Shown piece by piece: positions 26,717 through 43,363 of a stretch of DNA of 64,000 nucleotides. The notes under the pieces are model-generated. The model did no database searches and was not told where the DNA came from. It was given only the letters and a program-made list of their open reading frames with translations. The DNA comes from Polyangia bacterium (GTDB lineage Bacteria; Myxococcota_A; Polyangia; Nannocystales; Nannocystaceae): positions 211,599 to 275,598 of the forward strand of contig JAUIFF010000001.1 in assembly GCA_030429545.1 (NCBI GenBank), given 5' to 3'. The translations under genes and the position numbers were made by a program. Position 1 is the first letter of the stretch. Every line of letters begins with the position of its first letter.

Positions 26717-26860
26717 CGAACGGGTGGTGCGATCCGCATTGGCGACTTGGTGAGGATGCAACTTAAACGTTGTACGTACTTGCTTTTTTGGCCGCAAAAG
26801 TTTCGCAGACAAGCTGGTTTTTCGTTGACGACATGTGTGAGAGGCGCCTACCGTCCCGGT

Positions 26861-28066
26861 ATGCCTTACGGTTCCTTGGGTCGGTGCACATGTCTCGGAT
26901 TGTTGATTGCGCTTGCATCGGGTTGTGGCGATGGCGGCGGGCGTGAGGACGAGTCTGCCTCGAATGCCAGCTTACCCACAGGCATCACAACGCTGACGAC
27001 GGCCGGACCGGGCGGCAGCGAGTCGGATGCAGATACATCGAATGCGAGTGAGGCAGGCAGTGACTCGGCGAGTGAGACCGGCGACACCACGACGTCGGGC
27101 TCTGAGTCCGAGTCTGACGCGAGTACGAGCCCGTTTACGACCAGCGACAGTGATACCAGCACCAGCGATAGCGATAGCGATCCGTCGACCTCGACCACGG
27201 GGTTTGGTTGCGGCGATGGGGGCGAGTACGGCTGCGACAAGGTCGACTTTTTGTTTGTCATCGACAACTCGGGCTCGATGGGCGACAACCAAGACAACCT
27301 GATCGCCAGCTTTCCCGGGTTTATTTCGACGATTCAAAACACCCTGCCCGACAACGATTACCACATCATGGTGGTCGATACCGATGCCGGCAAGGGGGTT
27401 GAGCTACAGCTGTGTATCAACCAGTGTATGAACAACCCCGGGCTGCAGACCTGTTTCCCGTTTGGCTACCCGTGCAATCCGCTGCCCGATGAGTGCGACG
27501 AAACGCTCGGCGCTGGGGTGGTGTACCCAATCGGTGGTGATGCAACAAATGAGTATTGCAATCTCTTTGGCGGAAACCGCTACATCCTCCACGACGATCC
27601 GAACATCGCCGATTCGTTTGCCTGTGTTGCCAAGGTTGGCGACGACGGTGATGGCAGCGAGCGCCCGGCCGAGGCCATGGTGAGTGCCCTGAGTTTCCAG
27701 CAAAACCAGCCCGGTGCCTGCAACGAAGGGTTTTTGCGGGACGATGCCCTGTTGGTGATCACGATTATCACCGACGAGCCTGATACCAACTCCCAGGGGA
27801 TTCCCGCCGGTTGGGCGGCAAACGTGATCGCCGCGAAAAAGGGCGACCAATCCCGCGTGGTGGTGTTGGGCCTGTTTACCGACCCTGAACAGCCAAACCC
27901 CGTGTGCAGCATGGAGCACGCCCCGGCGCCGCAGTTGCGGGAATTTGCCCAGTCGTTTAGCAACAACATTATCGCCAGTGTGTGCGAGCCCAACTACGCC
28001 AGCTTCTTTGGCCAGGCAGTCAGCCTGATCGACAACGCCTGTTGCGAGTTTGAGCCGCCGCAGTAG
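26861..28066 (+). CDS. von Willebrand factor A domain lipoprotein
   Basis: Start at MPYGSLGRCTCLGLLIALASGCG (lipobox). Acidic Ser/Thr/Asp linker, then the MIDAS motif DFLFVIDNSGSM and a vWA-like fold. Confidence 0.7.
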   Translation: MPYGSLGRCTCLGLLIALASGCGDGGGREDESASNASLPTGITTLTTAGPGGSESDADTSNASEAGSDSASETGDTTTSGSESESDASTSPFTTSDSDTSTSDSDSDPSTSTTGFGCGDGGEYGCDKVDFLFVIDNSGSMGDNQDNLIASFPGFISTIQNTLPDNDYHIMVVDTDAGKGVELQLCINQCMNNPGLQTCFPFGYPCNPLPDECDETLGAGVVYPIGGDATNEYCNLFGGNRYILHDDPNIADSFACVAKVGDDGDGSERPAEAMVSALSFQQNQPGACNEGFLRDDALLVITIITDEPDTNSQGIPAGWAANVIAAKKGDQSRVVVLGLFTDPEQPNPVCSMEHAPAPQLREFAQSFSNNIIASVCEPNYASFFGQAVSLIDNACCEFEPPQ

Positions 28067-28069
28067 CGA

Positions 28070-30754
28070 CTACAGCGGGTGCTCAGTTTCCCACTCGGCA
28101 AGCGCCGACATCATGTTCTTGGCCGCAGGGTCGTTGGCCAACAGCGCACGAGCCTGGGCAATGATTGTATAAGCATGCTGTTTGCGGCCCTCTGCCCAGT
28201 GGACGTCGGCCAGGCGCAGCAGGGTGGAGGCGATGTAGCGCTCTTGGACCTCGAGTTCACGTTGCCGCGCAGCAAGGTTTTCCAATCGCGTGGCCGTGCC
28301 CTCGAGCGTGCCAAAGTGGATGTCGAGTTGCGAGCGTGTGCCCTCGAGCTTGGCGTAAAACCGGATATTGTCAGCAGCCATGTGCGGCTGCGGGAGGGCT
28401 GCGAGGCCCTTCATAATCTCTTCGAGAGCTGCCACGTGGTTGTCCTCGCGGATAAACAACCGTGCGATCTGAACCTGGGCATCGGCGATAAACGGGCCAT
28501 GCTCCGCAGCTCCGAGCTGTACGCGTAGCTCGATCTCACGGGTGTAGGCACCCCGGGCAGCGGGGTAGTTTTGTTGGCGGGCGTAGATCGAGCCCAGGTT
28601 GCGGTAGCCCATCGCCAGGATCGGCTGGATACTCGCCAGTGAAATCCGCTCCCAAATGGCAACCGCCTCGGTTTGTGCCGCGAGGGCGGTACCGAGGTCC
28701 TGGGCCTCACGCGCGACGATCGCGAGATTGTTGAGAGCCCCCGCAAGCTCCGGGTGGTCCGCCCCCACGAGCATGCGTTTTTGGGCGACCACAGACTGTG
28801 CATAGTCAACAGCTTTTTGAAAGTTCTTGTCGGCCATCTCCAAAATCGCGAGGTTGCCGACCGCCCGGGTTACAAGTGGGTGCTCGGCCGGATAGATCGA
28901 TTTCAGAAGCGCGTAGGATTGCTCGAGTGGGCCCCTGGCAAGGTTTGTTTGCCGCGTGCGTTCGAGCGCAAACCCGAGGTTGAGGAGGTGGCGGGCACGC
29001 AGTTCGCCGGGCGGGTCGTCGTAGCCGAGCCGCTTAATGAGTGCATCTGCATCTTTTAGCTCAGGAAACACCCGGTCATAGGACGACGCTCGGGCGGCAT
29101 TTACCCGGGTCAGGGCCAGCCGAGCCTCGAGCGCAAGGAGGTCGCGGCCACTGGCCATCGCGCCGTAGTAGACCTCATCCAAAATCTCGGTGGTCGCCTC
29201 GTATTGCTTGGTTTTCCCTAAAATTCGGCCGCGTGTCAGGCTGGCTTGGAGTTTGAGGTAGGGGTCGCCGAGAGCTTGAATTTCCTGATCGGTTTGATCC
29301 AAGACCTCGAGTGCACGCTCGAGTTTCGACGCCTGCCACAGCGCTTGGACCTCGGCCATCGACCCGCGCAGGCGAATGACCTCGGCCGCAAGTTCGGGGT
29401 CGTCCGGGACTTCGGCAGCGGCAGAGGCACGGCGCGGGTCGAGGCATGTGTCGGGCGGGACGAGCAGGGCCACCGCATTTGTTGCATGTTCAATCGTTTT
29501 GGTGTCTGGCTGGCGCAACACATCGATCGTGGCCGCAAACTCCCTGCGGCGTTGCTCGAGGCAGGCCACCCGGGCAAGTCGTGCGGCGTTCAGCGAGTCG
29601 GCCGCGAGTTCCGAGCAACTTTGCTGGTACATGTTTTCCCACGACACCCCGTACTGGGCGAGCTGGCGGACCACATGGTCCGTGGTCGCGCCGGAATACA
29701 CGGTACCCGAAGCCCGCAGCGCCTGTTCGAGTTGCTGTTTGACCTCGGGGTTCCAGATGGTCGCCAGCGGTGCCTGTTTATCCGGACAGATGTTGGGTTC
29801 AGTCGAGCTCGTCAGGGTTGTGCCAAGGCCGACTGCACCGGTCAAAACCGCGGCCAAGGTCAAAACCCGCCGTGCCCGTCGCCACGGGGAACCACGCTCG
29901 AGTTGGCGCAGGAGTTCGTCCATGGATGGCCAGCGATGTTCAGGAGCAATCGACAGGCCCCGGGCAATCGCCTTGGTGAGCCATCGGGGTCGTGAGCGAC
30001 CCTCCGAAAATCCCCGGTGTTGACCCTCCAACACATTGGCAGCGAGTACCGCAAACGTATCCCCGGCAAAGGGTCGTTGATGATACAACATCTCGTAGAG
30101 GACGATGCAAAACGCAAACTGGTCGGTGCGGGCATCGGCCGCCAATCCCGAAAATTGCTCGGGAGCCATATATGCCGGCGTACCCATGACCGCACCCGTG
30201 GTCGTCAAATCGAGTGGCTGTGCGCCCGGTTGCTCGCGGTCTGCAGCTTCGCGGTAGGCTACCAAGCCGAAGTCGAGGACCCGCGGCCGGCCATCTTCTC
30301 CCACGAGTACGTTGTCGGGCTTAAAGTCGCGGTGGACAAGGGACTGGGCATGGGCGGCAGCGAGGCCACGCCCGACCTCAATCATCATCCCGAGCCGGCG
30401 TAGCAACGGAGCCCCGCGGTGTTCGACCAACCACGATGTCAGGGTTTGGCCACGGACAAACTCCATGGCCATAAACACCTTGCCGCCGTGGTGGCCGACG
30501 TCGTGGACCGCAACAATATTTGGATGTGCAACTTTTGCGAGGGCCTGGGCCTCGCGCAGCAACCGTTCGCCCGCCAGTGGGTCATGTTGTTGTGGGTGCA
30601 ACAATTTGAGGGCAATACGGCGGTCGAGCTCCGGGTCGTAGGCGGCATAGACCGCCCCCATCGCACCGGCACCGATCTTCTCAATCACCACATAGCGGCC
30701 GATCCGACGCGGCACCGGCCCGGACGGTTGCAGGGGCACCTCCCGCGAGATCAT
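28070..30754 (-). CDS. Ser/Thr protein kinase with C-terminal TPR repeats
   Basis: Canonical Hanks kinase (IGAGAMGAVY, IALKLL, HRDFKPDNVL, DFGLV, YMAPEQ), a TM segment, then ~500 aa of TPR-like repeats. Confidence 0.85.
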   Translation of the reverse strand: MISREVPLQPSGPVPRRIGRYVVIEKIGAGAMGAVYAAYDPELDRRIALKLLHPQQHDPLAGERLLREAQALAKVAHPNIVAVHDVGHHGGKVFMAMEFVRGQTLTSWLVEHRGAPLLRRLGMMIEVGRGLAAAHAQSLVHRDFKPDNVLVGEDGRPRVLDFGLVAYREAADREQPGAQPLDLTTTGAVMGTPAYMAPEQFSGLAADARTDQFAFCIVLYEMLYHQRPFAGDTFAVLAANVLEGQHRGFSEGRSRPRWLTKAIARGLSIAPEHRWPSMDELLRQLERGSPWRRARRVLTLAAVLTGAVGLGTTLTSSTEPNICPDKQAPLATIWNPEVKQQLEQALRASGTVYSGATTDHVVRQLAQYGVSWENMYQQSCSELAADSLNAARLARVACLEQRRREFAATIDVLRQPDTKTIEHATNAVALLVPPDTCLDPRRASAAAEVPDDPELAAEVIRLRGSMAEVQALWQASKLERALEVLDQTDQEIQALGDPYLKLQASLTRGRILGKTKQYEATTEILDEVYYGAMASGRDLLALEARLALTRVNAARASSYDRVFPELKDADALIKRLGYDDPPGELRARHLLNLGFALERTRQTNLARGPLEQSYALLKSIYPAEHPLVTRAVGNLAILEMADKNFQKAVDYAQSVVAQKRMLVGADHPELAGALNNLAIVAREAQDLGTALAAQTEAVAIWERISLASIQPILAMGYRNLGSIYARQQNYPAARGAYTREIELRVQLGAAEHGPFIADAQVQIARLFIREDNHVAALEEIMKGLAALPQPHMAADNIRFYAKLEGTRSQLDIHFGTLEGTATRLENLAARQRELEVQERYIASTLLRLADVHWAEGRKQHAYTIIAQARALLANDPAAKNMMSALAEWETEHPL

Positions 30755-30979
30755 GGTGTCGGCGAGTGAGGCTTGCCGGGGGGAGGGAGCGGCAACATAG
30801 GCCGTTGCCTCGAGCCCACAAACCGCGAGGTTTTGATCGTTGTCCGTGCTACCTGTTGGCAAAGACACCAGCACAAGCAGTGTATCAGCCGTAATTTGGC
30901 ACAGGTCCGAAGTGACATGCACCCGAGCGCTGGTCGAGTTGTCAGCGCTCGCAAACGGACGATCGCGAGCACGGCATTG

Positions 30980-31950: not shown

Positions 31951-33948
31951 ATGAAAACCCCTCAATTGCCCTTCGAGTTTTCGGCTTTCAAATTTTCGGC
32001 TTGCAAGTTTTTACCCACTGCACTGCTCGCGGTTTGTGTCGGGTGCGGCACGCCAACCACGTCGACCGGTAGCGAAACCGATTCCGATAGCGAGACCACC
32101 ACCGGTGACATGACCGAGACCGATGGCGAGACTGGGAGCGACAGCGATACCGGGCTGCCCGAGCCGTCCGAGCTCGACGGTTTCAACCGCTTTGTCCTGC
32201 GGGTCGACGACACGCCCCCGCCCCCGCTGACATTGGTGATGGACCACCAGGACGCCATCGACTTTTTTGGTGCCCAGGCCAAGGACCTCAAGCTCGTCGA
32301 TATCGACCCCACGCCGATGCTAGAAAATGCCCTGTTGGCCATCCAGGGTGCCTGTGGCGACAAGTGGACGCTCGACAACAAAAACCCAAATCACAACTGT
32401 CAGGTTACCGATTTGGGCAAGACGTTTGGTGCCAACTGGCAACACACACCTGAGTACTCGATGGTGCGCTTGCTGTCGATGACGCCGTCCAATGCCGATA
32501 TGCGGGGGACGGCGTTTGAAAAACTCGAAGACGTGATGAACTCCGACCTGATCGTCGAGGACTTTGCCTGGGCGCTCACCCAGATCCTCGAGATCGAGCG
32601 GACCGACCCGCTGCTGCCAATGGGAGCACTGGTGGCCGCGGTCAAAGACACGCTGTTGCAGCACCCCGCTGTCAACGAAGACGGGACGCTTGGGGTCACC
32701 CTCGATGATGCCCTAAAAGACATGCGCCCGTTGGCGGCCAAGTTCGGTCCGGTCGAAGATCACCCGGGGATTTTGTTGCCCGACGACGTCGACAACCCCA
32801 ATGGATTTGAGACCAAAAGCGATGCTATCGACCACCAAAAATTCCAGATGAAGGTCGTCGCCGGCAGTAACCTGCGGTTTGTCGACGGCGTCGACTTGTC
32901 CGGTGGCGGCGGCGATATGTTTTTGCTGCGCGACGATGCCGAGAACGTCTTAGAGCTCAAGTTCACCGGGGCCCACGAGGCCAACCTCGAGATTTCTGGG
33001 ATCAACGACCCGCCGACCATGGATATGCGGATGCGGATCAACGAGTTTATCGGCGACGCCGAACCGTGTCTCGATCCGGTCGAGGGCTGCCAAACCAACC
33101 AACCGAGCGAAGTCTACGAAGGCGCACCCGAGACCAACGTGTGGCGGTTGCCGCTGTGGTCGATGGAACGTTTGGTCGGGCAGTCGGGCTACCGCGCGTA
33201 CAAAGACGATCCCGAGGATTTCTCCAAGGATATCTCCAAGGACATCTGCCTGTTTATGGGCCAAAACAACTGCTACATCCGCCTCAAGTTGGGTGCCGAT
33301 GGTGCGCCCGAGGGGTGGATGAAGATGGAGCTCGACAACCTCTTCAACGAGGAGGAGTTTCCCGAGCCGCAGTTCTTCTGGGAGATGTTTGTCGACATCG
33401 CGGAAATCTCATTTCACGACGTCGACCCCGACACCCCGGGCCAGGAAGTCGAAGAGGGGGCGACCCCGACGTTTGCCCTCACCAAACTCAACATCGGGCT
33501 CACAGCCGACGACCTGATCGCCCAGATCCGGCAGTCACTCGAAGACCAAGAGGACGTGATGAGTGACCTGATTTTGGGTCGCTACTGGAAAAACAACCAC
33601 GCCCTCGACTTCTATTACCGGCGGGCCGACGACGGCAACCTCTACCTGTTTTTCGCCAACAACGAGGACCTGCGCCCCGACCCGCAAAACCCCAACGCCC
33701 CGCTAGAGCCCGCCTACCAAAACCCGGGCTTCTTCTCGTGTGTCGAGGTCAACGAGGGGTGCAAAGAGTCTCGCCTCAACATTTCTGGGGTCAGCGATAC
33801 GACCCACGAAAAACTCGCACTCAAGCGTGGCTGGAACAATCTGTATATGCAAGATGATCTCAACGGCATCTACGAGGTTCGCATCTATGTGCCGGAAAAC
33901 CGCGATGCCACCAAAATCTGGGCCTACGTTCGTTCGGCCGGCGCCTAA
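31951..33948 (+). CDS. Uncharacterised lipoprotein, paralog 1 of a tandem three-gene family
   Basis: Lipobox LLAVCVGCG and acidic Thr/Asp linker. Shares FFWEMFVDIAE, DFYYRR, YQNPGFF and HEKLALKRGWNNLYMQDD blocks with the next two genes. Confidence 0.7.
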   Translation: MKTPQLPFEFSAFKFSACKFLPTALLAVCVGCGTPTTSTGSETDSDSETTTGDMTETDGETGSDSDTGLPEPSELDGFNRFVLRVDDTPPPPLTLVMDHQDAIDFFGAQAKDLKLVDIDPTPMLENALLAIQGACGDKWTLDNKNPNHNCQVTDLGKTFGANWQHTPEYSMVRLLSMTPSNADMRGTAFEKLEDVMNSDLIVEDFAWALTQILEIERTDPLLPMGALVAAVKDTLLQHPAVNEDGTLGVTLDDALKDMRPLAAKFGPVEDHPGILLPDDVDNPNGFETKSDAIDHQKFQMKVVAGSNLRFVDGVDLSGGGGDMFLLRDDAENVLELKFTGAHEANLEISGINDPPTMDMRMRINEFIGDAEPCLDPVEGCQTNQPSEVYEGAPETNVWRLPLWSMERLVGQSGYRAYKDDPEDFSKDISKDICLFMGQNNCYIRLKLGADGAPEGWMKMELDNLFNEEEFPEPQFFWEMFVDIAEISFHDVDPDTPGQEVEEGATPTFALTKLNIGLTADDLIAQIRQSLEDQEDVMSDLILGRYWKNNHALDFYYRRADDGNLYLFFANNEDLRPDPQNPNAPLEPAYQNPGFFSCVEVNEGCKESRLNISGVSDTTHEKLALKRGWNNLYMQDDLNGIYEVRIYVPENRDATKIWAYVRSAGA

Positions 33949-33967
33949 GTTTCGGAGCAACACATCC

Positions 33968-35764
33968 ATGACAAATCGATTTGGCAAACTCCGCCCCCTC
34001 GGTCTCGCACTCAGCTGTGCTGCCCTCGGCCTGTGCTTGAGTTCATGTGTTCAAGAGGTCACCCTCGAAGAAAAACCCGATCCCACCGAAGTGGCGGTTG
34101 GCGAAGTCCGCACGGTCGAGATGCGCCACTGGCGGTTCGACGTCAAAAAATTCGAGATGACACTCGACCTAGAGGCGCTCAAGGGCATGCCCGAAAAGGT
34201 CCTGCGCGAGACCTGGATGGTCGACCTCGACGTTCGCCCGCTGATCATCAACTCGCTCGACAAGTTGCTCAACATGAATCCGGAGGAGGTCGATGGCCTG
34301 CCGGATGCCGAGTACAACATGTACCACCTGCTGACGATGACGGCCGATTCGGCCGATCTACGTGGGACCAGCCTGGAGGCGCTGCTCGAGATCGGCGAAG
34401 GCGTGGGCCTGGCCCCAAGCCGGGTACTCGCCGACTTGGTGGAAGTTGATGAGGACGAGCCGATTATTCCGCTCGAGATGATTGCCGATGCGGTGATCGA
34501 AAACCTCATTCAAACCCATCCGAGTGCCCAGTTTCGACGTGGCCCGGTGACCGATGAGCACCCCGACGGGCTCTACCCGGTGACGCCTGGAACCTTGCCC
34601 GTGAGCATGTGGGACGTGGTGACCGACTTTGCCGAGCTACCGATTCAGTTTGGCCCGGCAAATGTGGCGACCGAATACGGCTACCACCCGGGGTTCATTG
34701 CAGATACATCGGGTCTCAAGGCCACCACCGACGACTTCCAGATGGCGGTCCAGGTGGACCTCAACGCGTTTTCGTTTGAGGCCCTCGACCTGTCGACGAC
34801 CTCGATCGGCGCGGTCAACAGTACCGCCAGCCAGATCCGCGATGTCTTTGACTTCAACAACCCCGACTGGCTCAAGCTCGAAGGTCTCAAACAGGACCTG
34901 GTGATCGACGAGCTGACGATGTCGATTTTTGAGAGCCCAACATTTATTTCGGGGGGCACCTCAAAAGAGCCCGCACCACTTGGTAACTCGGCTGTTTGGG
35001 AACGGGCTCCATGGGAGTTTGAGCGACTGTTGGCCGATGTTGCAGTGCTGCGGGCCAGCGGCGTCTCCGAGCACTGTTCGGTGTACCAACCCGAGGGCAC
35101 CCTCGAAGAGCCATTTGATGCCGTCCAAGCCTGTTTTGGTGCCGATGCCTGGGTTTCAATTGCGGTCGATCAAAAGGTTGAACTCGACCAGCCGCCACCA
35201 CCCCCATCTTACTTTTGGGACATGTTGTTAGAAATCGCGCAATCGCTACTCCACAATGGTGGAATCGCCGAAGGAGCGGGGAGCGTGGCCCTGACCTTGC
35301 GGGATATCCCGACGGGCGTAGACACGGAGGAATTGGTCAACGAAATCAAGGGTAACATCATGACAAATCCCGAGGCGATGGCGGATTTTGCCGCCCTCCT
35401 CAACGACAGTCATATCGGCGACCCTGACTTCTACTACTATGTCCCACGGGTCGAGAACTCGGATGACATTAAGGGTGACTACCTCTACTTCATTACCCCG
35501 CGGGACCTCCGTACCGACGATAACGGTTTTGCGGTGCGACCCTACGGTTATCAAAACCCGGGCTTTTTCTCCGATCGCGCGCTCTTGCAAAAGGTTTCGA
35601 GCAAGGACCTCAATGTCGATGGCGACGTCGTTCACGAGAAGGTCAAAATCTCACCCGGAGATGTCTTGTACATGCAAGATGATGCGGCGCGCGTGTTCAA
35701 GCTCTCGGTCAACGAAAAACCGAGCAAGTACAAAATCTCGATCGACATCGAGCGCGTCGAATAG
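33968..35764 (+). CDS. Uncharacterised lipoprotein, paralog 2
   Basis: Lipobox LCLSSC. Blocks PPPPPSYFWDMLLEIAQ, DPDFYYY, YQNPGFF, HEKVKISPGDVLYMQDD. Confidence 0.7.
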   Translation: MTNRFGKLRPLGLALSCAALGLCLSSCVQEVTLEEKPDPTEVAVGEVRTVEMRHWRFDVKKFEMTLDLEALKGMPEKVLRETWMVDLDVRPLIINSLDKLLNMNPEEVDGLPDAEYNMYHLLTMTADSADLRGTSLEALLEIGEGVGLAPSRVLADLVEVDEDEPIIPLEMIADAVIENLIQTHPSAQFRRGPVTDEHPDGLYPVTPGTLPVSMWDVVTDFAELPIQFGPANVATEYGYHPGFIADTSGLKATTDDFQMAVQVDLNAFSFEALDLSTTSIGAVNSTASQIRDVFDFNNPDWLKLEGLKQDLVIDELTMSIFESPTFISGGTSKEPAPLGNSAVWERAPWEFERLLADVAVLRASGVSEHCSVYQPEGTLEEPFDAVQACFGADAWVSIAVDQKVELDQPPPPPSYFWDMLLEIAQSLLHNGGIAEGAGSVALTLRDIPTGVDTEELVNEIKGNIMTNPEAMADFAALLNDSHIGDPDFYYYVPRVENSDDIKGDYLYFITPRDLRTDDNGFAVRPYGYQNPGFFSDRALLQKVSSKDLNVDGDVVHEKVKISPGDVLYMQDDAARVFKLSVNEKPSKYKISIDIERVE

Positions 35765-35781
35765 ACAGGAGTTTACCTAAC

Positions 35782-37596
35782 ATGACCGCCCCCCGCAGTT
35801 ACTGGCCTGGTGTTCGCGCGGTAGCTGCCGCTTGTTTGGTTGCTGCTACAAGTTCATCTTGTATCGTCAAAGAAGTCACCTACGAGCCGCCGCCAGAGCA
35901 GGCCGAGATGGCGCCGGGGGAGACCCGCAGTGTCGTGCTGCTGTACAGCCGGTTCGATGTCGAAGACTTTGAACAGGTCATGACCATCGACGACCTCAGC
36001 CGGCTTCCGCTGACGACGCTCGAGAAGGTCTGGCTCCTCGACTACGACCCGTCGCTGCTGATGAATGCAGTGCTCGACGACCTCAAAAACCTGTCGCCGT
36101 CGGAGGCCGACGAACTGTCGGTGCCGGCCCAAAACATGCGCAAGCTGTTGAAGATGACCCCGGACACCGCCGACCTCACGGGGACCAACTTGGAGGAGGC
36201 CATCGCCCTCGCGCAGGCGGTCAACATTCCGCCCGGGCGGGTGCTCGCCGACCTGTTGGCGAAGGGCGTGACCGAAGAAGTCCTAACCTCCGATGTGGCC
36301 ACACAGGTGATTCGCCAGTCGCTAATCGCCAGTCACCCCAACGGCCAAACCCGCCGTGGGGCCGTGACTGCAGACCATCCCGACGGGATCTACGACGTGA
36401 CCCCAGGGACGATTCCGGTGACGCTCGCCGATGTCGTGACCGAGTTTCGAGCCCTGCCCGAACGCTTTGGGCCAATGCCGCTCGACCCCGAAGACCCCAA
36501 CAGCCTCGTTCATCCCGGGTTTATCACCGACGCCAGCGGGATTCCGTGGGAGACGACGATGACGGTCAAGGCCAACATCAATGCGTTGCCCTACGAGGGC
36601 GTTGACCCGACCTATTCGCGGATGGAGTACGTCAACAGCGTGCCCTCGCAGATCGATACGATGTTCGACTTCAGCGACCCCGAGTGGATGAAGGTCGAAG
36701 GCCTAGGCGGCACCATCGTGATCGATACGATCACCATGGGGATCATCGAAAACGACAGCTTCATTCCCGGTGGAATTTCGCAAGATCCCGTAGGGCAGGG
36801 TGACTCGCCAGTGTGGGAGCTGCCACCATGGGAGTTCGAACAAATGATCGCCGAGATGGCGAAAGTCAAGACCGACGACATCCCGGCCCATTGCGACGAA
36901 TACAAGTTTGGTACCGGGACCGTGGCGTTTCGTGCCTGCATCAGCCAAAGCGCAGAGGATGAGCCCGCGCCCGAGGTGCCGTGGGGATGGACCGAGCTCA
37001 GGTCGTTTGGCGATATCGGCGACCCGCCACCACCGGCCTATTTGTGGGACGTGTTGCTCGAGGTCGTGCAAGTCCGGCTGCACGACGGTGGTTTGGCCGA
37101 GGGCCAAGCTGACGTTGAGTTCACATTAAAAAACGTCGAGATCGATGTCGACGAGGCCGAAGAAAAGAAGCTGGTCGACGAGATCAAAGCCAACTTCCAA
37201 GAAGACCCAGGAGCATTTGTCGAGGTCGCCAAAACCCTAGTCGACAGCGCCACCGGAGATCCGGATTTTTACTACTACCGGCCCGACCTCGATAACTCCG
37301 TCGACATCCAGGGGGACTACCTCTACTTCGTCGAGCCAGCCGATCTGCGAGTCGACGACGAGGGAGAGCTCGTGCGCCCCTACGCCTACGAAAAGCCCGG
37401 GTTTTTCCGCGACGAAGGTCTCAACGACAAGGTCTCCTCAACCATGGAGATCGATGGCGACACCACCCGCGAGAAAGTTAAGATTCAGCCGGGTGATGTG
37501 TTGTTCATACAAGATGATCGCGGCGTCCGATTCCGGATCAATGTTGGCGAGAAGCCGAGTAAGTTTAGAGTTGCACTAGACATCACTCGCCTTTAA
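35782..37596 (+). CDS. Uncharacterised lipoprotein, paralog 3
   Basis: Lipobox ATSSSC. Blocks PPPPAYLWDVLLEVVQ, DPDFYYY, EKPGFF, REKVKIQPGDVLFIQDD. Closely collinear with paralog 2. Confidence 0.7.
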   Translation: MTAPRSYWPGVRAVAAACLVAATSSSCIVKEVTYEPPPEQAEMAPGETRSVVLLYSRFDVEDFEQVMTIDDLSRLPLTTLEKVWLLDYDPSLLMNAVLDDLKNLSPSEADELSVPAQNMRKLLKMTPDTADLTGTNLEEAIALAQAVNIPPGRVLADLLAKGVTEEVLTSDVATQVIRQSLIASHPNGQTRRGAVTADHPDGIYDVTPGTIPVTLADVVTEFRALPERFGPMPLDPEDPNSLVHPGFITDASGIPWETTMTVKANINALPYEGVDPTYSRMEYVNSVPSQIDTMFDFSDPEWMKVEGLGGTIVIDTITMGIIENDSFIPGGISQDPVGQGDSPVWELPPWEFEQMIAEMAKVKTDDIPAHCDEYKFGTGTVAFRACISQSAEDEPAPEVPWGWTELRSFGDIGDPPPPAYLWDVLLEVVQVRLHDGGLAEGQADVEFTLKNVEIDVDEAEEKKLVDEIKANFQEDPGAFVEVAKTLVDSATGDPDFYYYRPDLDNSVDIQGDYLYFVEPADLRVDDEGELVRPYAYEKPGFFRDEGLNDKVSSTMEIDGDTTREKVKIQPGDVLFIQDDRGVRFRINVGEKPSKFRVALDITRL

Positions 37597-37604
37597 CAGC
37601 CTTC

Positions 37605-38110
37605 GGGGGGCGCGCGGGCCTTTTTGGCCGTGAGAGCGGTCGGGAGAGGCTTGCGGTAGGTCGACTACAGCGTCGCCTCGCACGACTCGCTTCACGGCCA
37701 AAAATTCTCCGCGAATCGTGGTGTGGGGCAGGGTTTTGGTTCTGGGAAGCGCGCGGGCGTTTTGGGGAGCGCGGGCAGAGAGACGGTCGGGAGAGGCTTG
37801 CGGTAGGTCGACTACAGCGTCGCCTCGCACGACTCGCTTCACGGCCAAAAATTCTCCGCGACTCGTGGTGTGGGGCAGGGTTTTGGTTCTGGGAAGCGCG
37901 CGGGCGTTTTGGGGAGCGCGGGGGGCAGAGAGAGCGGTCGGGAGAGGCTTGCGGTAGGTCGACTACCGCGTCGCCTCGTGCGACTCGCTTCACGGCCAAA
38001 AATTCTCCGCGACTCGTGGTGTGGGGCGGGGTTTTGGTTCTGGGAAGCGCGCGGGCGTTTTGGCTGTGAGAGCGGTCGGGAGAGGAGGCCGGCTTGAGTC
38101 GTCCGGGACT
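37605..38110. repeat. Tandem array, ~3.5 copies of a ~135-bp intergenic repeat (family also present at 38900-39575)
   Basis: Unit ...gagcggtcgggagaggcttgcggtaggtcgactacagcgtcgcctcgcacgactcgcttcacggccaaaaattctccgcgaatcgtggtgtggggcagggttttggttctgggaagcgcgcgggcgttttgg. Contains an imperfect hairpin CACGACTCGC-(20 nt)-GCGAATCGTG. Confidence 0.8.
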
Positions 38111-38191
38111 CTTCGGTAAGAACCCAGGCTGTGGGTGCCACCGTCGCTATCGGCGGCATCCGTGCATCGCCGGACCAAGGAGTTCACCCCC

Positions 38192-38773
38192 ATGCAGAAA
38201 CTGGTCTACTACGTCGCAACTACGGCGGACGGCTATATCGCTGGACCGAATGGCCAGATCGACTTCTTTCCCTTCGACGGCGACCACCTCCGCGGTCTGT
38301 ACCAGGACTATCCCGAGACATTTCCTGTGCACGCCCGCGAGGCGCTCGGCTTCGTCTTCGACAACCCCAAGCGCTTCCGCACCGTCGTGATGGGGCGCCG
38401 CACCTACCAGCCTGCACTAGATATCGGGGTGACTGACCCGTACGCTCCTCTGGAGACGATTGTGTTCTCGAGAACCCTGCCCGCAGGTGTGAACGGAGCA
38501 GTCAAGATCACCGACGAGGATCCGATATGCCTCGTCCGGGCGCTCAAGCAGCGCAACGACGGAGCAATCTGGCTGTGCGGTGGTGCGCAACTGGCGGGCG
38601 AGCTTGCGGGGGAGATCGACGAGCTGATCTTGAAGGTCAATCCCGTTGTCGTAGGGGACGGAGTCCCCGCGATTACCGGAGCATTCCGTCCGCGAGCGCT
38701 TCGTTTGAAAAGGCAACGAGTGTTCGACAGTGGGGTGATTGTTCTCTACTACGACATCGTGCGGGATGAGTAG
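38192..38773 (+). CDS. Dihydrofolate-reductase-family protein (RibD C-terminal domain-like)
   Basis: 193 aa; LVYYVATTADGYIAGPNG...VMGRRTY...LWLCGGAQLAGELA, typical of the bacterial DHFR-like/RibD_C family. Confidence 0.7.
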   Translation: MQKLVYYVATTADGYIAGPNGQIDFFPFDGDHLRGLYQDYPETFPVHAREALGFVFDNPKRFRTVVMGRRTYQPALDIGVTDPYAPLETIVFSRTLPAGVNGAVKITDEDPICLVRALKQRNDGAIWLCGGAQLAGELAGEIDELILKVNPVVVGDGVPAITGAFRPRALRLKRQRVFDSGVIVLYYDIVRDE

Positions 38774-38899: not shown

Positions 38900-39575
38900 T
38901 TCTCGGTAGAGTTAACTTCGCTCTCAAATCAGTTTCAGCAGCGAGTTCGGTCGGGAGAGGCTCGCACAAGGTCGACGACAGCTTCGCCACAACCGGCTTC
39001 ACGCGAGTCGTAGAGGCTTGGTTTTGGTTGGGCGCGGGGGCAGTCGGTCGGGAGAGGCTCGACGACAGCTTCGCCTCACAACCAGCTTCACGCGAGTCGT
39101 AGTGTGAGGCTTGGTCTTGGTTGTGGTGGCAGCGAGTTCGGTCGGGGGAGGCTCGACGACAGCTTCGCCTGTCACGACTCGCTTCACGGCCAAAACATGT
39201 TCGTGAATCGTGGTGTGAGGCTTGGTCTTCGTTCTGGCGCCGTGAGGGACCTGTTTGGTCGTGAGAGTCGGGAGGGACTGGTGGCAGTGAGAGCGGTCGG
39301 TAGGCCGACGATCGCTTCGCCTGTCACGCGACTCGCTTCACGGCCGAAAATCTTCGTGGATCGTGGGGCGCGGGGCCGCCAGTGTGTCGGTGGTCGACTA
39401 TACGACTCGCGTTACGGCCGGAAATCCGCGAAACGCGGTGTGGGGTTGGTCTGGGCACTGGCGGGTGTACGAGTTCGCCTGGGCAGGCGGGTGTGGGGTC
39501 AGAGCGGTCGCGGGAGAGGCTCGCAGTCGGTTGACGACGACTTCGCCTCTCACGACCGAGAAGTCGCTACGACAC
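38900..39575. repeat. Second block of the same intergenic repeat family, ~5 degenerate copies
   Basis: Recurring ...ggtcgggagaggctcgacgacagcttcgcct..cacgactcgcttcacggccaaaa..tt.gtg.atcgtggtgtg.gg.ttggt.t.g... units, related to the 37605-38110 block. Together they flank the DHFR-like gene. Confidence 0.75.
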
Positions 39576-41699: not shown

Positions 41700-42095
41700 G
41701 GGTGGCGAGCAGCCCGTGGGTTTAACCCACGCAGTTGCCGAGCCGGACGATGTTGGTCCTTGCGAGTTTTTTCGACGAAACCGACAAAAACCTGTCCAGA
41801 GCGGCTAGCAGCTGTGGTTTTTGTCGTGGCACCCACGCAGTTGCCGAGCCGATGTTGGTCCAAAAATGTAGCTACATTTAACTCGTCCGGAGCAGCTGGC
41901 AGTTTGGGGTTTTTGTCGTGGCACCCCCACGCAGTTGCCGAGCCGGCTGATGTTGGTCCTAGCGAGTTTTGCCAACGAACCCGACAAAAACCGCAGTCCA
42001 GAGTAGCTAGTAAGCCTGTAGATTTTATTGTTGCACCCGAGCTAGTGGTCCTGGCGAGTTTTGCCGACTAACCCGACAAAAACCGCAGCTTGAGG
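41700..42095. repeat. Intergenic tandem repeat, ~4 degenerate copies of a ~95-bp unit with palindromic TGTAGCTACA motifs
   Basis: Units share cacgcagttgccgagccgg.tgatgttggtcct.gcgagtttt.c.a.gaa.ccgacaaaaacc... The palindrome atgtagctacatt sits at ~41683 and ~41868. Confidence 0.75.
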
Positions 42096-43363
42096 TAGTA
42101 CAGGGCGAAGGCCGCCAGGCAGGCGATACTCACCCAGCTGTAGGCTTGCATGCCGCGGCCGGGACGGGCGGCCTCGGGGACCTCGCTGCCGAGGATGGCC
42201 CGGTGGTTCATCCACGCGAGGATTGGCGCAGTCAAAAACGAAAGCACGGTGGCGAGGTCAACCATGCCCTTGAGGTTTTTGATGAACTGGCCAAGGACAA
42301 GCAACGAGCCGACCCCGAGGATGACGAGTGCTCCCCAGTAGCTCTTGCTCGACTTGTGCTGGTCGCCAGCTTCGGGTTGCTCGGGGCTTTGGAAACGGGC
42401 GACGAGGCCACTGAGGGCCCGGGGAAATCCGTCGATCACGGTCAGGACGGTCGAGCACATCACGGTGAGGGCACAAAAGCCAATGACGGGGCGGCTCCAC
42501 TCGCCGAGGTTTTGTGTGTAGAGGTCGATGACCTGGTTGGCAAATCCGCCGGCCGTCGTTGCCAGCTGCTGGCCGCTGCCGAACATCACACCTGCCCCTA
42601 AGAGCACGTAACACAGGGCGAGCAGGGCGGTGCCGATGTAGCCGATGTTGAAGTCGACAAGGACTTCTCGAACACTTGGCCGGTGGCCGGTGCTGTCGCG
42701 GCGGGCGAGTGTCCAAAGTGAGTGCCACACCGCGATGTCGAGCGCAGTCGGCATCCACCCGACCAAAGCCGCGGCAAAGAAGACGGTCTTCGGGTCCCAG
42801 TCGCTGGCGCCGAGGATCCACGGTGAGCTCCAGTCGATCTGCCCAAGTGCCAGTGTGGTCGCCGCCAGGGTGGCGATTGTCAGCGTGACGACGATTACCT
42901 TGATCACGCGGTCGAGCAGGCGAAACTGACCCATCCCGTTGATCCCTGCGCCGAGCACGGTGATGACCAGGGCATACATCATGAGTGAGAGCCCGTTGCC
43001 AAACAGCGCGAGGGCCAAACCCGCGGTGACGATCGTGACCGCCGCCTGGACCGCGAACATGGTGCCGACCGTGAGGACGCCGTAGAGAATCAACGCCCAC
43101 TTACCCTGGCGGCGGTAGGCTTCGAGCAGGCTTGTGCCGGTCGCGGCCGCGTAGCGCGGGCCGAAGTTAAACCCTGGGTACTTGAGGACGTTGGCCACAA
43201 CCACCAAGCCCAGCATCGCCAGCCCGTACATGGCACCTGCGCGCGTCGACTGGACGAGGTGGGAAACGCCGACAGCTGTGCCCGCAAATAAAAACCCCGG
43301 TCCGAGTGCCTTGAGCAGGTTGGGGCGTGGGGACGCGGTCGACGGAGAGGTCATAACCGGCAT
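42068..43363 (-). CDS. NRAMP-family divalent metal cation transporter (MntH-like)
   Basis: 431-aa, 11-TM protein with NRAMP blocks (GPGFLFAGTAVGVSHLVQST, MPTALDIAVWHS). Confidence 0.85.
   Translation of the reverse strand: MPVMTSPSTASPRPNLLKALGPGFLFAGTAVGVSHLVQSTRAGAMYGLAMLGLVVVANVLKYPGFNFGPRYAAATGTSLLEAYRRQGKWALILYGVLTVGTMFAVQAAVTIVTAGLALALFGNGLSLMMYALVITVLGAGINGMGQFRLLDRVIKVIVVTLTIATLAATTLALGQIDWSSPWILGASDWDPKTVFFAAALVGWMPTALDIAVWHSLWTLARRDSTGHRPSVREVLVDFNIGYIGTALLALCYVLLGAGVMFGSGQQLATTAGGFANQVIDLYTQNLGEWSRPVIGFCALTVMCSTVLTVIDGFPRALSGLVARFQSPEQPEAGDQHKSSKSYWGALVILGVGSLLVLGQFIKNLKGMVDLATVLSFLTAPILAWMNHRAILGSEVPEAARPGRGMQAYSWVSIACLAAFALYYLKLRFLSG

Follow-up and report, generated by a model that had tools for sequence, protein, structure and literature searches.

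Outer-membrane barrels with known or proposed lipoprotein partners

The main route known to take hydrophobic molecules across Gram-negative outer membranes is the FadL channel, which is generally treated as stand-alone; to our knowledge, the known FadL transporters function without lipoprotein partners. VolA of Vibrio cholerae, a surface lipoprotein, is expressed together with FadL (PMC3656444). Two FadL homologs, BamG and PorV, use their extracellular loops to bind surface lipoproteins, and Bt1785/Bt1786 have been described as paralogs of BamG and BamH (PMC12578637). Among systems with other barrels, SusC/SusD consists of an outer-membrane barrel and dedicated lipoprotein(s) encoded together, and HmuY–HmuR takes up haem in Porphyromonas gingivalis, with PinO, Tfo and BfrB/C as homologs.

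The window, which is the whole stretch of 64,000 nt analysed here, comes from a member of Polyangia and holds the following four genes of interest.

31951-33948, + strand: P1 (paralog 1), predicted A-type lipoprotein, ORF of 665 aa
33968-35764, + strand: P2 (paralog 2), predicted B1-type lipoprotein, 598 aa from ATG 33968
35782-37596, + strand: P3 (paralog 3), predicted B2-type lipoprotein, ORF of 604 aa
39715-41262, + strand: FadL/TodX/OMPP1-family outer-membrane beta-barrel channel (Pfam PF03349)

We tentatively favour the reading that these genes belong to a conserved outer-membrane module of Polyangia, in which a FadL channel and an anciently diverged A/B lipoprotein pair would serve the capture, and perhaps the processing, of hydrophobic substrates. 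Such a module would resemble VolA–FadL in having a lipoprotein gene beside a co-oriented fadL homolog, an arrangement found in 73 of the 79 loci compared and in the distant locus L080, with a gap of 2.1 kb in the window. The proposed function would also be alike: at the outer membrane a lipid is acted on and then passed to FadL. However, VolA is a recognisable lipase encoded by a single gene, whereas P1–P3 have neither a lipase profile nor a GxSxG motif and the Polyangia loci carry a conserved paralog pair.

BamG–BamH, part of the BAM complex in Bacteroidota, and PorV, part of type IX secretion, also combine a FadL-family barrel with surface lipoproteins, a physical association of the kind that gene linkage suggests for our loci. 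BamH is unrelated in sequence to P1–P3, and the Polyangia loci show no link to BamA. BamG has a conserved N-terminal extension through its lateral opening; the Polyangia barrel has no obvious one, as judged by sequence from the roughly 24 residues between its predicted mature N-terminus and the NP motif. SusC/SusD has the overall plan of a barrel with dedicated, jointly encoded lipoproteins in common with these loci but differs in barrel family, lipoprotein fold, expected substrate class (glycan, versus hydrophobic here) and phylum.

The lipoprotein genes and their linkage to FadL

In BLASTP comparisons, P2 and P3 are 44% identical over 592 aa (E 3e-169) and collinear end to end, and P1 shares 24% identity with P2 (E 8e-30) and 23% with P3 (E 1e-20). 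Similarity at this level, far above chance, shows that all three proteins are homologous. Thus, the ORFs, these alignments and the lipoboxes bear out what a first-pass annotation had read from this DNA, namely three homologous lipoprotein genes with the second and third collinear and closer to each other than to the first. The mechanically called ORF of P2 opens at GTG 33740, within P1; a plausible start is ATG 33968 (MTNRFGKLRPLGLALSCAALGLCLSSC...), with the end at 35764. With this start the gaps are 19 nt (P1/P2) and 17 nt (P2/P3); 18-20 nt had been given.

A lipobox follows the signal peptide in all three proteins: LAVCVGC in P1 (C32 or C29), LSSC in P2 (C27) and SSSC in P3 (C27). The lipobox Cys (C27) is invariant across a 72-sequence alignment, a crude lipobox pattern is present in 146/214 family representatives, and the +2 residue after this Cys is almost never Lys in the family. 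By signal peptide and lipobox with an invariant Cys, P1–P3 are predicted to be bacterial lipoproteins, i.e. substrates of Lgt and LspA. In P1, an acidic S/T/D/E tether of ∼43 aa (about residues 33-75) precedes the family domain, which has four probable disulfide pairs (C135/150, C373/380, C433/441 and C597/604). An acidic linker had been ascribed to all three proteins, but in P2 and P3 its place is taken by a short tether rich in Glu and Pro. Likewise, of four sequence blocks described as common to the three, all are exact in P2 only; P3 has two exact (PPPPAYLWDVLLE and DPDFYYY) and two near matches (YEKPGFF and REKVKIQPGDVLFIQDD), and in P1 YQNPGFF alone is exact. Long relatives of the family carry N-terminal bacterial Ig spacer domains. 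We count the invariant lipobox Cys, the rarity of Lys at +2, the paired cysteines, the Ig spacers and the acidic tether of P1 as support for a probable extracytoplasmic placement; as signs of exposure on the cell surface, the Ig stalks and the tether are only suggestive.

The suggested survey of the family's distribution yielded 79 related genomic loci, all in Polyangia, which served as our comparison set. The family comprises about 340 sequence clusters at 50% identity and occurs in, among others, the cellulose-degrading genus Sorangium. In 75/79 loci, an A-type gene (as P1) lies directly upstream of a B-type gene (as P2 and P3), in fixed order and with gaps of tens of nt, an arrangement that marks A and B as an old, obligatory pair. 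In a neighbour-joining (NJ) tree, the two types form separate old clades whose split is older than the Nannocystales–Polyangiales divergence. A second B gene is present in about 18 loci, most of them titled Nannocystis or Nannocystaceae and the rest Polyangia or Myxococcales MAGs, and the B2 clade adjoins the single B gene of Enhygromyxa-type loci. In the window B alone is duplicated, as P2 and P3, and by the tree this duplication is old as well. Hence, the description of the locus as a ‘tandem triplication’ is misleading, as it implies one recent event, whereas tree and synteny point to an ancient A/B pair and an old B duplication. Nor is the family ‘expanded’ in a lineage-specific manner, with only two or three members per locus, in fixed order.

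The product of the FadL gene matches PF03349 with 107.5 bits (cut-off 29.7, E 7e-31), and its closest solved relative is the Pseudomonas aeruginosa FadL homolog 3dwo (E 5e-5). The ORF opens at TTG 39715 and the likely start is ATG 39766; a predicted signal-peptidase site of canonical type (VHA|SGLD) is followed by an N-terminal hatch with a [WY]NP motif. An NPA-type motif of the N-terminal hatch is known from the structural literature on FadL. In 73 sequences, [WY]-N-P is 96-97% conserved and lies about 24-25 residues past the predicted mature N-terminus.

A same-strand FadL homolog was found in 73/79 loci, within about 1.5 kb of the A/B pair in 72, and it either comes next behind the last B gene or immediately precedes the A gene; in the six loci without FadL, contig ends cut the relevant side. 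Gene order depends on lineage (A-B-FadL or FadL-A-B) and the linkage is kept. In the distant relative L080, three family members are followed by a FadL-type (Toluene_X) gene, and stop and start codons overlap. Upon clustering of all ORFs across loci, the family and FadL alone were widespread and no other conserved neighbour emerged. Flanking genes of six loci had unrelated functions by Pfam (ApbA, Ser/Thr kinase, histidine kinase, SpoU, TauE and DUF2891), and no TonB-dependent receptor was among the neighbours scanned with Pfam. In the window, co-transcription of P3 and FadL is doubtful, because the 2.1 kb between them hold tandem repeats and an unrelated ORF. The intergenic repeat region has no Rfam match and the repeat is not in any other locus. 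The linkage to FadL is the key context that the first-pass annotation missed.

Family assignment and fold

Neither Pfam (E ≤ 1) nor NCBIfam placed P1–P3 in a family, and no family recurred when 55 members of the A+B alignment were searched against Pfam at E ≤ 10. A profile search of PDB sequences gave a chance match alone (E 1.1), and Foldseek against the PDB with a full structure model of P2 returned nothing at E ≤ 0.001. These negative searches agree with the earlier statement that no family is recognisable; placement in a well-characterised enzyme family, which would have refuted the first-pass reading, did not emerge from the profile searches either. The N-terminal half, which bears most of the conserved His/Asp/Glu residues, has no likeness to any solved enzyme fold, and neither has the full model. 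On the evidence of the model, the overall fold of the family appears to be unmatched. Literature searches on Sorangium lipoproteins or acetyltransferases, on FadL with HmuY and on FadL in Myxococcota turned up no account of the family.

The model contains one putative HmuY-like beta domain of about 130/598 residues with moderate Z, which is not significant in Foldseek, has no sequence-profile support and was put in the C-terminal half by elimination only. No sequence match to the HmuY family (PF14064) was found for P1–P3 (Pfam, E ≤ 1) or the 55 members (E ≤ 10). Moreover, HmuY is a single domain of about 190 aa, whereas the Polyangia proteins have about 600 aa, of which the other roughly 450 match nothing. 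The partner of HmuY is the TonB-dependent receptor HmuR, in contrast to a FadL-type barrel of 14 strands without TonB dependence here; HmuY is one protein and the Polyangia loci encode two or three paralogs; and the phyla differ (Bacteroidota versus Myxococcota).

NCBI and UniRef label many B-type homologs (Sorangium, Nannocystis and Paraliomyxa) ‘acetyltransferase’, and if the label were right P1–P3 would be acetyltransferases. We give this next to no credence. Searches of 55 members, with a threshold as loose as E ≤ 10, matched none of them to an acetyltransferase or any acyltransferase model, and no structural match to acetyltransferases was found. The So ce56 version of the protein was first deposited as ‘hypothetical protein’, A-type homologs carry the names ‘hypothetical’ or ‘lipoprotein’, and acetyl-CoA should be out of reach of a secreted lipoprotein. 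The label thus looks like a propagated misannotation without support in the sequences. Reading the proteins as lipases was likewise rejected, as P1–P3 match no lipase profile and contain no GxSxG motif.

Candidate roles of the lipoproteins

In comparisons with the closest relative, dN/dS was 0.14 for P1 (against locus L001) and 0.08 for P3, a range of 0.08-0.14 for the lipoprotein genes, and 0.075 for the FadL gene. Across 18 Sorangium species, mean pairwise identity of the lipoproteins is 77-84% and that of the adjacent FadL 86%; conservation is uniform, with no hypervariable region. Purifying selection acts on all these genes; on the lipoprotein genes it is strong, and A and B resemble FadL in its level. 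Between the paralogs dN/dS, which had been proposed as a check, is saturated (dS 1.6-2.0) and says nothing.

These values bear on the earlier suggestion that the proteins are an expanded surface family serving adhesion, predation or kin recognition, here taken as a recent expansion, which would suit the lipoprotein signals, the tandem paralogs and the myxobacterial host. With copy number fixed at two or three in 79 loci, duplications that are old in the tree, low dN/dS and lipoprotein identities near that of the neighbouring FadL, we regard it as very improbable. The family also occurs in cellulose-degrading Sorangium, which is not primarily a predator. The strong variability between strains, or diversifying selection, that marks polymorphic families for kin recognition or adhesion (such as TraA-like ones) is missing by both measures, and membership in them was rejected. 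A quite improbable, but less remote, alternative is that the FadL-like barrel is no transporter in these loci but anchors the lipoproteins, or helps to export them, for display on the surface, as BamG does for BamH or as PorV does, their role being, for example, adhesion, matrix binding or envelope assembly and unrelated to uptake. Some FadL homologs are documented to bind lipoproteins in roles other than transport (PMC12578637), the barrel has a weak NCBIfam match to FilD, which belongs to the FadL family and to a pilus system, and Ig-domain stalks, as in the long relatives, typify displayed surface proteins. However, the barrel retains the conserved NP motif of the hatch and has no obvious long N-terminal extension like the plug in the lateral opening of BamG, no adhesin-type domain was found in P1–P3, and conservation is uniform.

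The conserved polar residues raise a different alternative, which we consider unlikely yet worth weighing: the lipoproteins would be enzymes in the manner of VolA, whose catalytic, probably metal-dependent His/Asp/Glu site cleaves a larger substrate, lipid-containing or otherwise hydrophobic, at the outer membrane, with the product entering via FadL. Among 198 near-full-length representatives of A and B, H184 (100%), D216 (99%), H240-P241-G242 (about 100%), E322 and E352 (97.5% each), H429 (93%), E435 (92%), D487 (99%) and D513 (96.5%) are conserved, as are several Trp residues, and VolA, a surface lysophospholipase, provides a precedent (PMC3656444). Against this, profile searches gave no match to hydrolases, lipases or other enzymes, P1–P3 contain neither GxSxG nor HExxH, the full model and the N-terminal half are unlike any solved enzyme fold, and it would be unusual for a simple hydrolase that two or three paralogs all keep the site.

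In the preferred reading, a capture module around FadL, the lipoproteins, after export and lipidation, would be anchored in the outer membrane, where an A/B(/B') heteromer may assemble at the FadL barrel, either on it or next to it. The lipoproteins would capture a molecule of hydrophobic or amphipathic nature and pass it to the channel for crossing of the outer membrane, possibly after processing at the conserved His/Asp/Glu site. Non-redundant A and B subunits would fit, because the two types co-occur in fixed order, form separate old clades and are under purifying selection similar to that on FadL. We infer the physical complex, its topology (cell surface or periplasmic face), which way transport runs and what the substrate is; gene linkage is no proof of physical interaction between the lipoproteins and FadL. 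Nor do the eight nearly invariant His/Asp/Glu residues favour a passive binder over an enzyme, which they would suit no less well. A bolder version, rather unlikely as it stands, is that the family is a new-fold class of outer-membrane lipoproteins, with A/B(/B') as a multi-subunit cap dedicated to the FadL channel and the His/Asp/Glu site binding a metal or ligand. If true, hemophore-like or SusD-like capture of hydrophobic ligands on a FadL barrel would be described for the first time outside Bacteroidota.

Class-wide linkage of a FadL gene to two apparently non-redundant lipoproteins of unmatched fold points to an accessory machinery for substrate capture or processing. A new ligand-binding or catalytic fold could come to light, as could the lipid-like nutrient or signal that these soil and marine myxobacteria import. 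The analysis also corrects the ‘acetyltransferase’ annotation and defines a family that has no Pfam or NCBIfam model, and the module is testable in culturable Sorangium and Nannocystis.

Three lipoprotein genes in the window

Three adjacent genes (P1, P2 and P3) lie upstream of a channel gene on the same strand of the window:

31951-33948, + strand: P1, ORF, 665 aa
33968-35764, + strand: P2, ORF from ATG 33968, 598 aa
35782-37596, + strand: P3, ORF, 604 aa
39715-41262, + strand: FadL/TodX/OMPP1 outer-membrane channel (PF03349, 107.5 bits, E 7e-31), nearest solved relative the P. aeruginosa FadL homolog 3dwo

As mechanically listed, the P2 ORF opens at a GTG within P1; ATG 33968, with a product opening MTNRFGKLRPLGLALSCAALGLCLSSC, is the credible start, and with it the gaps P1-P2 and P2-P3 are 19 and 17 nt. 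The ORFs, BLAST-level identities and lipobox cysteines confirmed, with small corrections, the three homologous lipoprotein genes of the first-pass annotation. P2 and P3 are indeed collinear (44% identity end to end, E 3e-169), and P1 is more diverged (24% to P2, E 8e-30; 23% to P3, E 1e-20). All three have an N-terminal signal peptide and lipobox cysteine, but the long acidic S/T/D/E tether is found only in P1, where an acidic linker had been ascribed to each. All four quoted motif blocks match exactly in P2; in P3 the match is exact in part, and in P1 most of them have diverged. The eight cysteines of mature P1 fall into four closely spaced pairs, and one pair is present in each of P2 and P3, which fits an oxidising, extracytoplasmic location of these proteins. 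P1 also contains two short in-frame coding repeats, one in the signal-peptide region (31978-32011, 15 nt x 2.3, encoding FSAFKFSACKF) and one in a variable loop (33215-33247, 12 nt x 2.8, encoding DISKDISKDI).

An ancient lipoprotein pair tied to a FadL channel

Scanning one genome per species gave 79 loci, and every taxonomically named one is from Polyangia (Nannocystis, Enhygromyxa, Paraliomyxa, Sorangium, Chondromyces, and Polyangiales or Nannocystales MAGs); the closest, L001, is from an uncultured Nannocystaceae MAG (87% identity). By tblastn with the three paralogs, a P1-type gene (A) lies directly upstream of a P2/P3-type gene (B) in 75 of the 79 loci, and contig ends truncate three of the remaining four. 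Sorangium, Chondromyces, Enhygromyxa and Paraliomyxa have A and B only; about 18 loci, mostly titled Nannocystis or Nannocystaceae and otherwise Polyangia/Myxococcales MAGs, have a second B gene, and in six Polyangiales MAGs (L067, L072, L073, L074, L078, L079) A and B are separated by a third, distinct paralog, C, with ~1 kb of other sequence between A and C. In a neighbour-joining tree, which carries no support values, A, B and C are separate old clades, and the P2 lineage adjoins the single B of Sorangium and Chondromyces while that of P3 adjoins the single B of Enhygromyxa-type loci; thus the B duplication is old too. A and B are therefore an ancient, obligatory lipoprotein pair, present in the window as A/B1/B2 (P1/P2/P3), and the tandem triplication of the first-pass annotation does not stand as a recent event.

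Throughout Polyangia, the pair shows genetic linkage to a channel of the FadL family, and this linkage is strong: 73 of the 79 loci have a FadL homolog on the same strand, within ~1.5 kb in 72 of these, and the six others are broken off by a contig end on the side concerned. FadL directly follows the last B in Sorangium, Chondromyces, Nannocystis and Polyangiales MAGs, with apparent gaps from a slight overlap to ~310 nt (489 nt in L001), and directly precedes A in Enhygromyxa, Paraliomyxa and many Nannocystaceae MAGs. When every ORF of the loci was clustered, no other gene proved widely conserved, and the flanking genes of six loci have unrelated functions. In a distant relative (L080, GCA_024449875.1, 5290-13748), three consecutive family members of 904, 850 and 581 aa precede a Toluene_X/FadL gene, all four with overlapping stop and start codons; the two longer ones carry N-terminal bacterial Ig domains, and the 850-aa protein groups with the C clade. 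Together with the locus survey, this arrangement indicates that the unit consists of FadL and two or more paralogous lipoproteins. Besides the usual A-B-FadL, a further A-type copy lies downstream of FadL in Sorangium sp. So ce1078 (L018, 13781-15514), and in one Nannocystaceae MAG (L055, 7598-10578) FadL appears to abut B, with no A-type gene detected between them.

P3 and FadL are 2.1 kb apart in the window, compared with 489 nt in L001; relative to L001, this genome therefore has an insertion of ~1.6 kb, consisting of two intergenic tandem repeats (37632-38063, 147 nt x 2.9 copies, 96% identity; 38972-39170, 94 nt x 2.2 copies, 85% identity) and a RibD_C-like ORF (38135-38773). The repeats have no Rfam match, and a 28-nt core of the 147-nt repeat is confined to its array within the window and absent from all 81 loci fetched.

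Fold, conserved residues and naming of the lipoproteins

The family had been called unrecognisable, and searches agreed: Pfam and NCBIfam gave no credible match to P1, P2 or P3, no recurring family emerged when all 55 members of the combined A+B alignment were scanned at E<=10, and a profile run against every PDB sequence returned a chance match only. In a 5.8-billion-protein collection, 86 clusters are homologous to P2 and 24 to P1; of these only one (P0086) has a precomputed Pfam domain, an Ig-like one. An HMM searched exhaustively against 1.84 billion cluster representatives found 342 members at E<=1e-3 (203 at E<=1e-30). Many of them are 830-1040 aa long, and in these the family domain is C-terminal and the N-terminus carries Ig domains of bacterial type (Big_7, Glucodextran_B, Big_13). 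Our literature search found no publication describing the family or the FadL-lipoprotein module.

P2 was modelled confidently by AlphaFold2 (72-sequence alignment, pLDDT 91, pTM 0.82). Beyond the lipid anchor the model shows a disordered tether, then a helical region (~68-181), a beta-rich middle (189-320) and a C-terminal half of mixed structure whose last elements are beta strands. Its overall fold has no match, and one domain appears similar to the ligand-binding lipoproteins of the HmuY type.

Solved structures listed for the P2 model (protein, PDB entry, score)
PinO, 6r2h, 8.8
Tfo, 6eu8, 8.7
HmuY, 3h8t, 7.9
BfrB, 8b6a, 7.8
BF2707, 4gbs, 7.5
BfrC, 8b61, 6.2
DUF4466, 4ei0, 6.0

Across 198 near-full-length members of all types, H184, D216, H240-P241-G242, E322, E352, H429, E435, D487 and D513 are 92-100% conserved, as are several tryptophans.

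Selection and a proposed transport role

An adhesion or kin-recognition role had been suggested and is poorly supported: selection is purifying, with dN/dS against L001 of 0.14 (A), 0.09 (B1), 0.08 (B2) and 0.075 (FadL) at dS ~1, and mean pairwise identity among 18 Sorangium species is 77% (A), 84% (B) and 86% (FadL), the reverse of what a diversifying recognition locus would show.

We propose that the lipoproteins form a heteromer working with the FadL barrel; together they would capture a hydrophobic substrate for passage across the outer membrane, and might also process it. HmuY-HmuR, VolA-FadL and BamG-BamH/PorV are precedents for this logic. A rival is that the lipoproteins have a catalytic role, for which the conserved His/Asp/Glu residues would suit a putative metal site. 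The acetyltransferase function given in databases is poorly supported: many B-type members bear that label in NCBI and UniRef, but no model and no fold backs it, the original deposition of the So ce56 protein called it 'hypothetical', and A-type members are named 'hypothetical' or 'lipoprotein'; we treat the name as a propagated misannotation. A further rival to the transport reading is that the barrel may serve display or anchoring. The signal-peptidase site is conserved among the FadL proteins, which also share a [WY]NP motif ~25 residues from the mature N-terminus; this motif corresponds to the hatch NPA motif of FadL structures. No obvious long N-terminal extension was seen in them, unlike non-transporting BamG, which is characterised by one (PMC12578637). 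Transport with dedicated lipoproteins would be a testable function for a module confined to one bacterial class. The module belongs with a known kind, outer-membrane barrels that have dedicated lipoproteins, and combines an uncharacterised lipoprotein fold with a FadL barrel.

Another lipoprotein of the window, at 26747-28066 (+), has a very long acidic S/T/D/E linker (~110 aa), similar to the P1 tether. After the linker comes a DxSxS (MIDAS-like) motif, VIDNSGSM. Pfam gave no match and NCBIfam a weak one, to a MIDAS family adhesin (E 1e-5); this lipoprotein is conserved in L001, L010 and L035 only. Near the module, large Ser/Thr kinases that carry TPR domains occur in the window (28070-30922, -) and in Sorangium So ce56 (L013, 13348-17220), with tblastn matches at variable positions in 31 loci, a recurrence that probably reflects the mere abundance of such kinases in myxobacteria. 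A 431-aa ORF convergent with FadL (42068-43363, -), weakly matching an Nramp-family divalent-metal transporter (NF037982, 49.2 bits, cut-off 50), may or may not be relevant to the module and lies beside FadL in only eight A-B1-B2-type loci (L001, L002, L004, L009, L010, L011, L035, L040).
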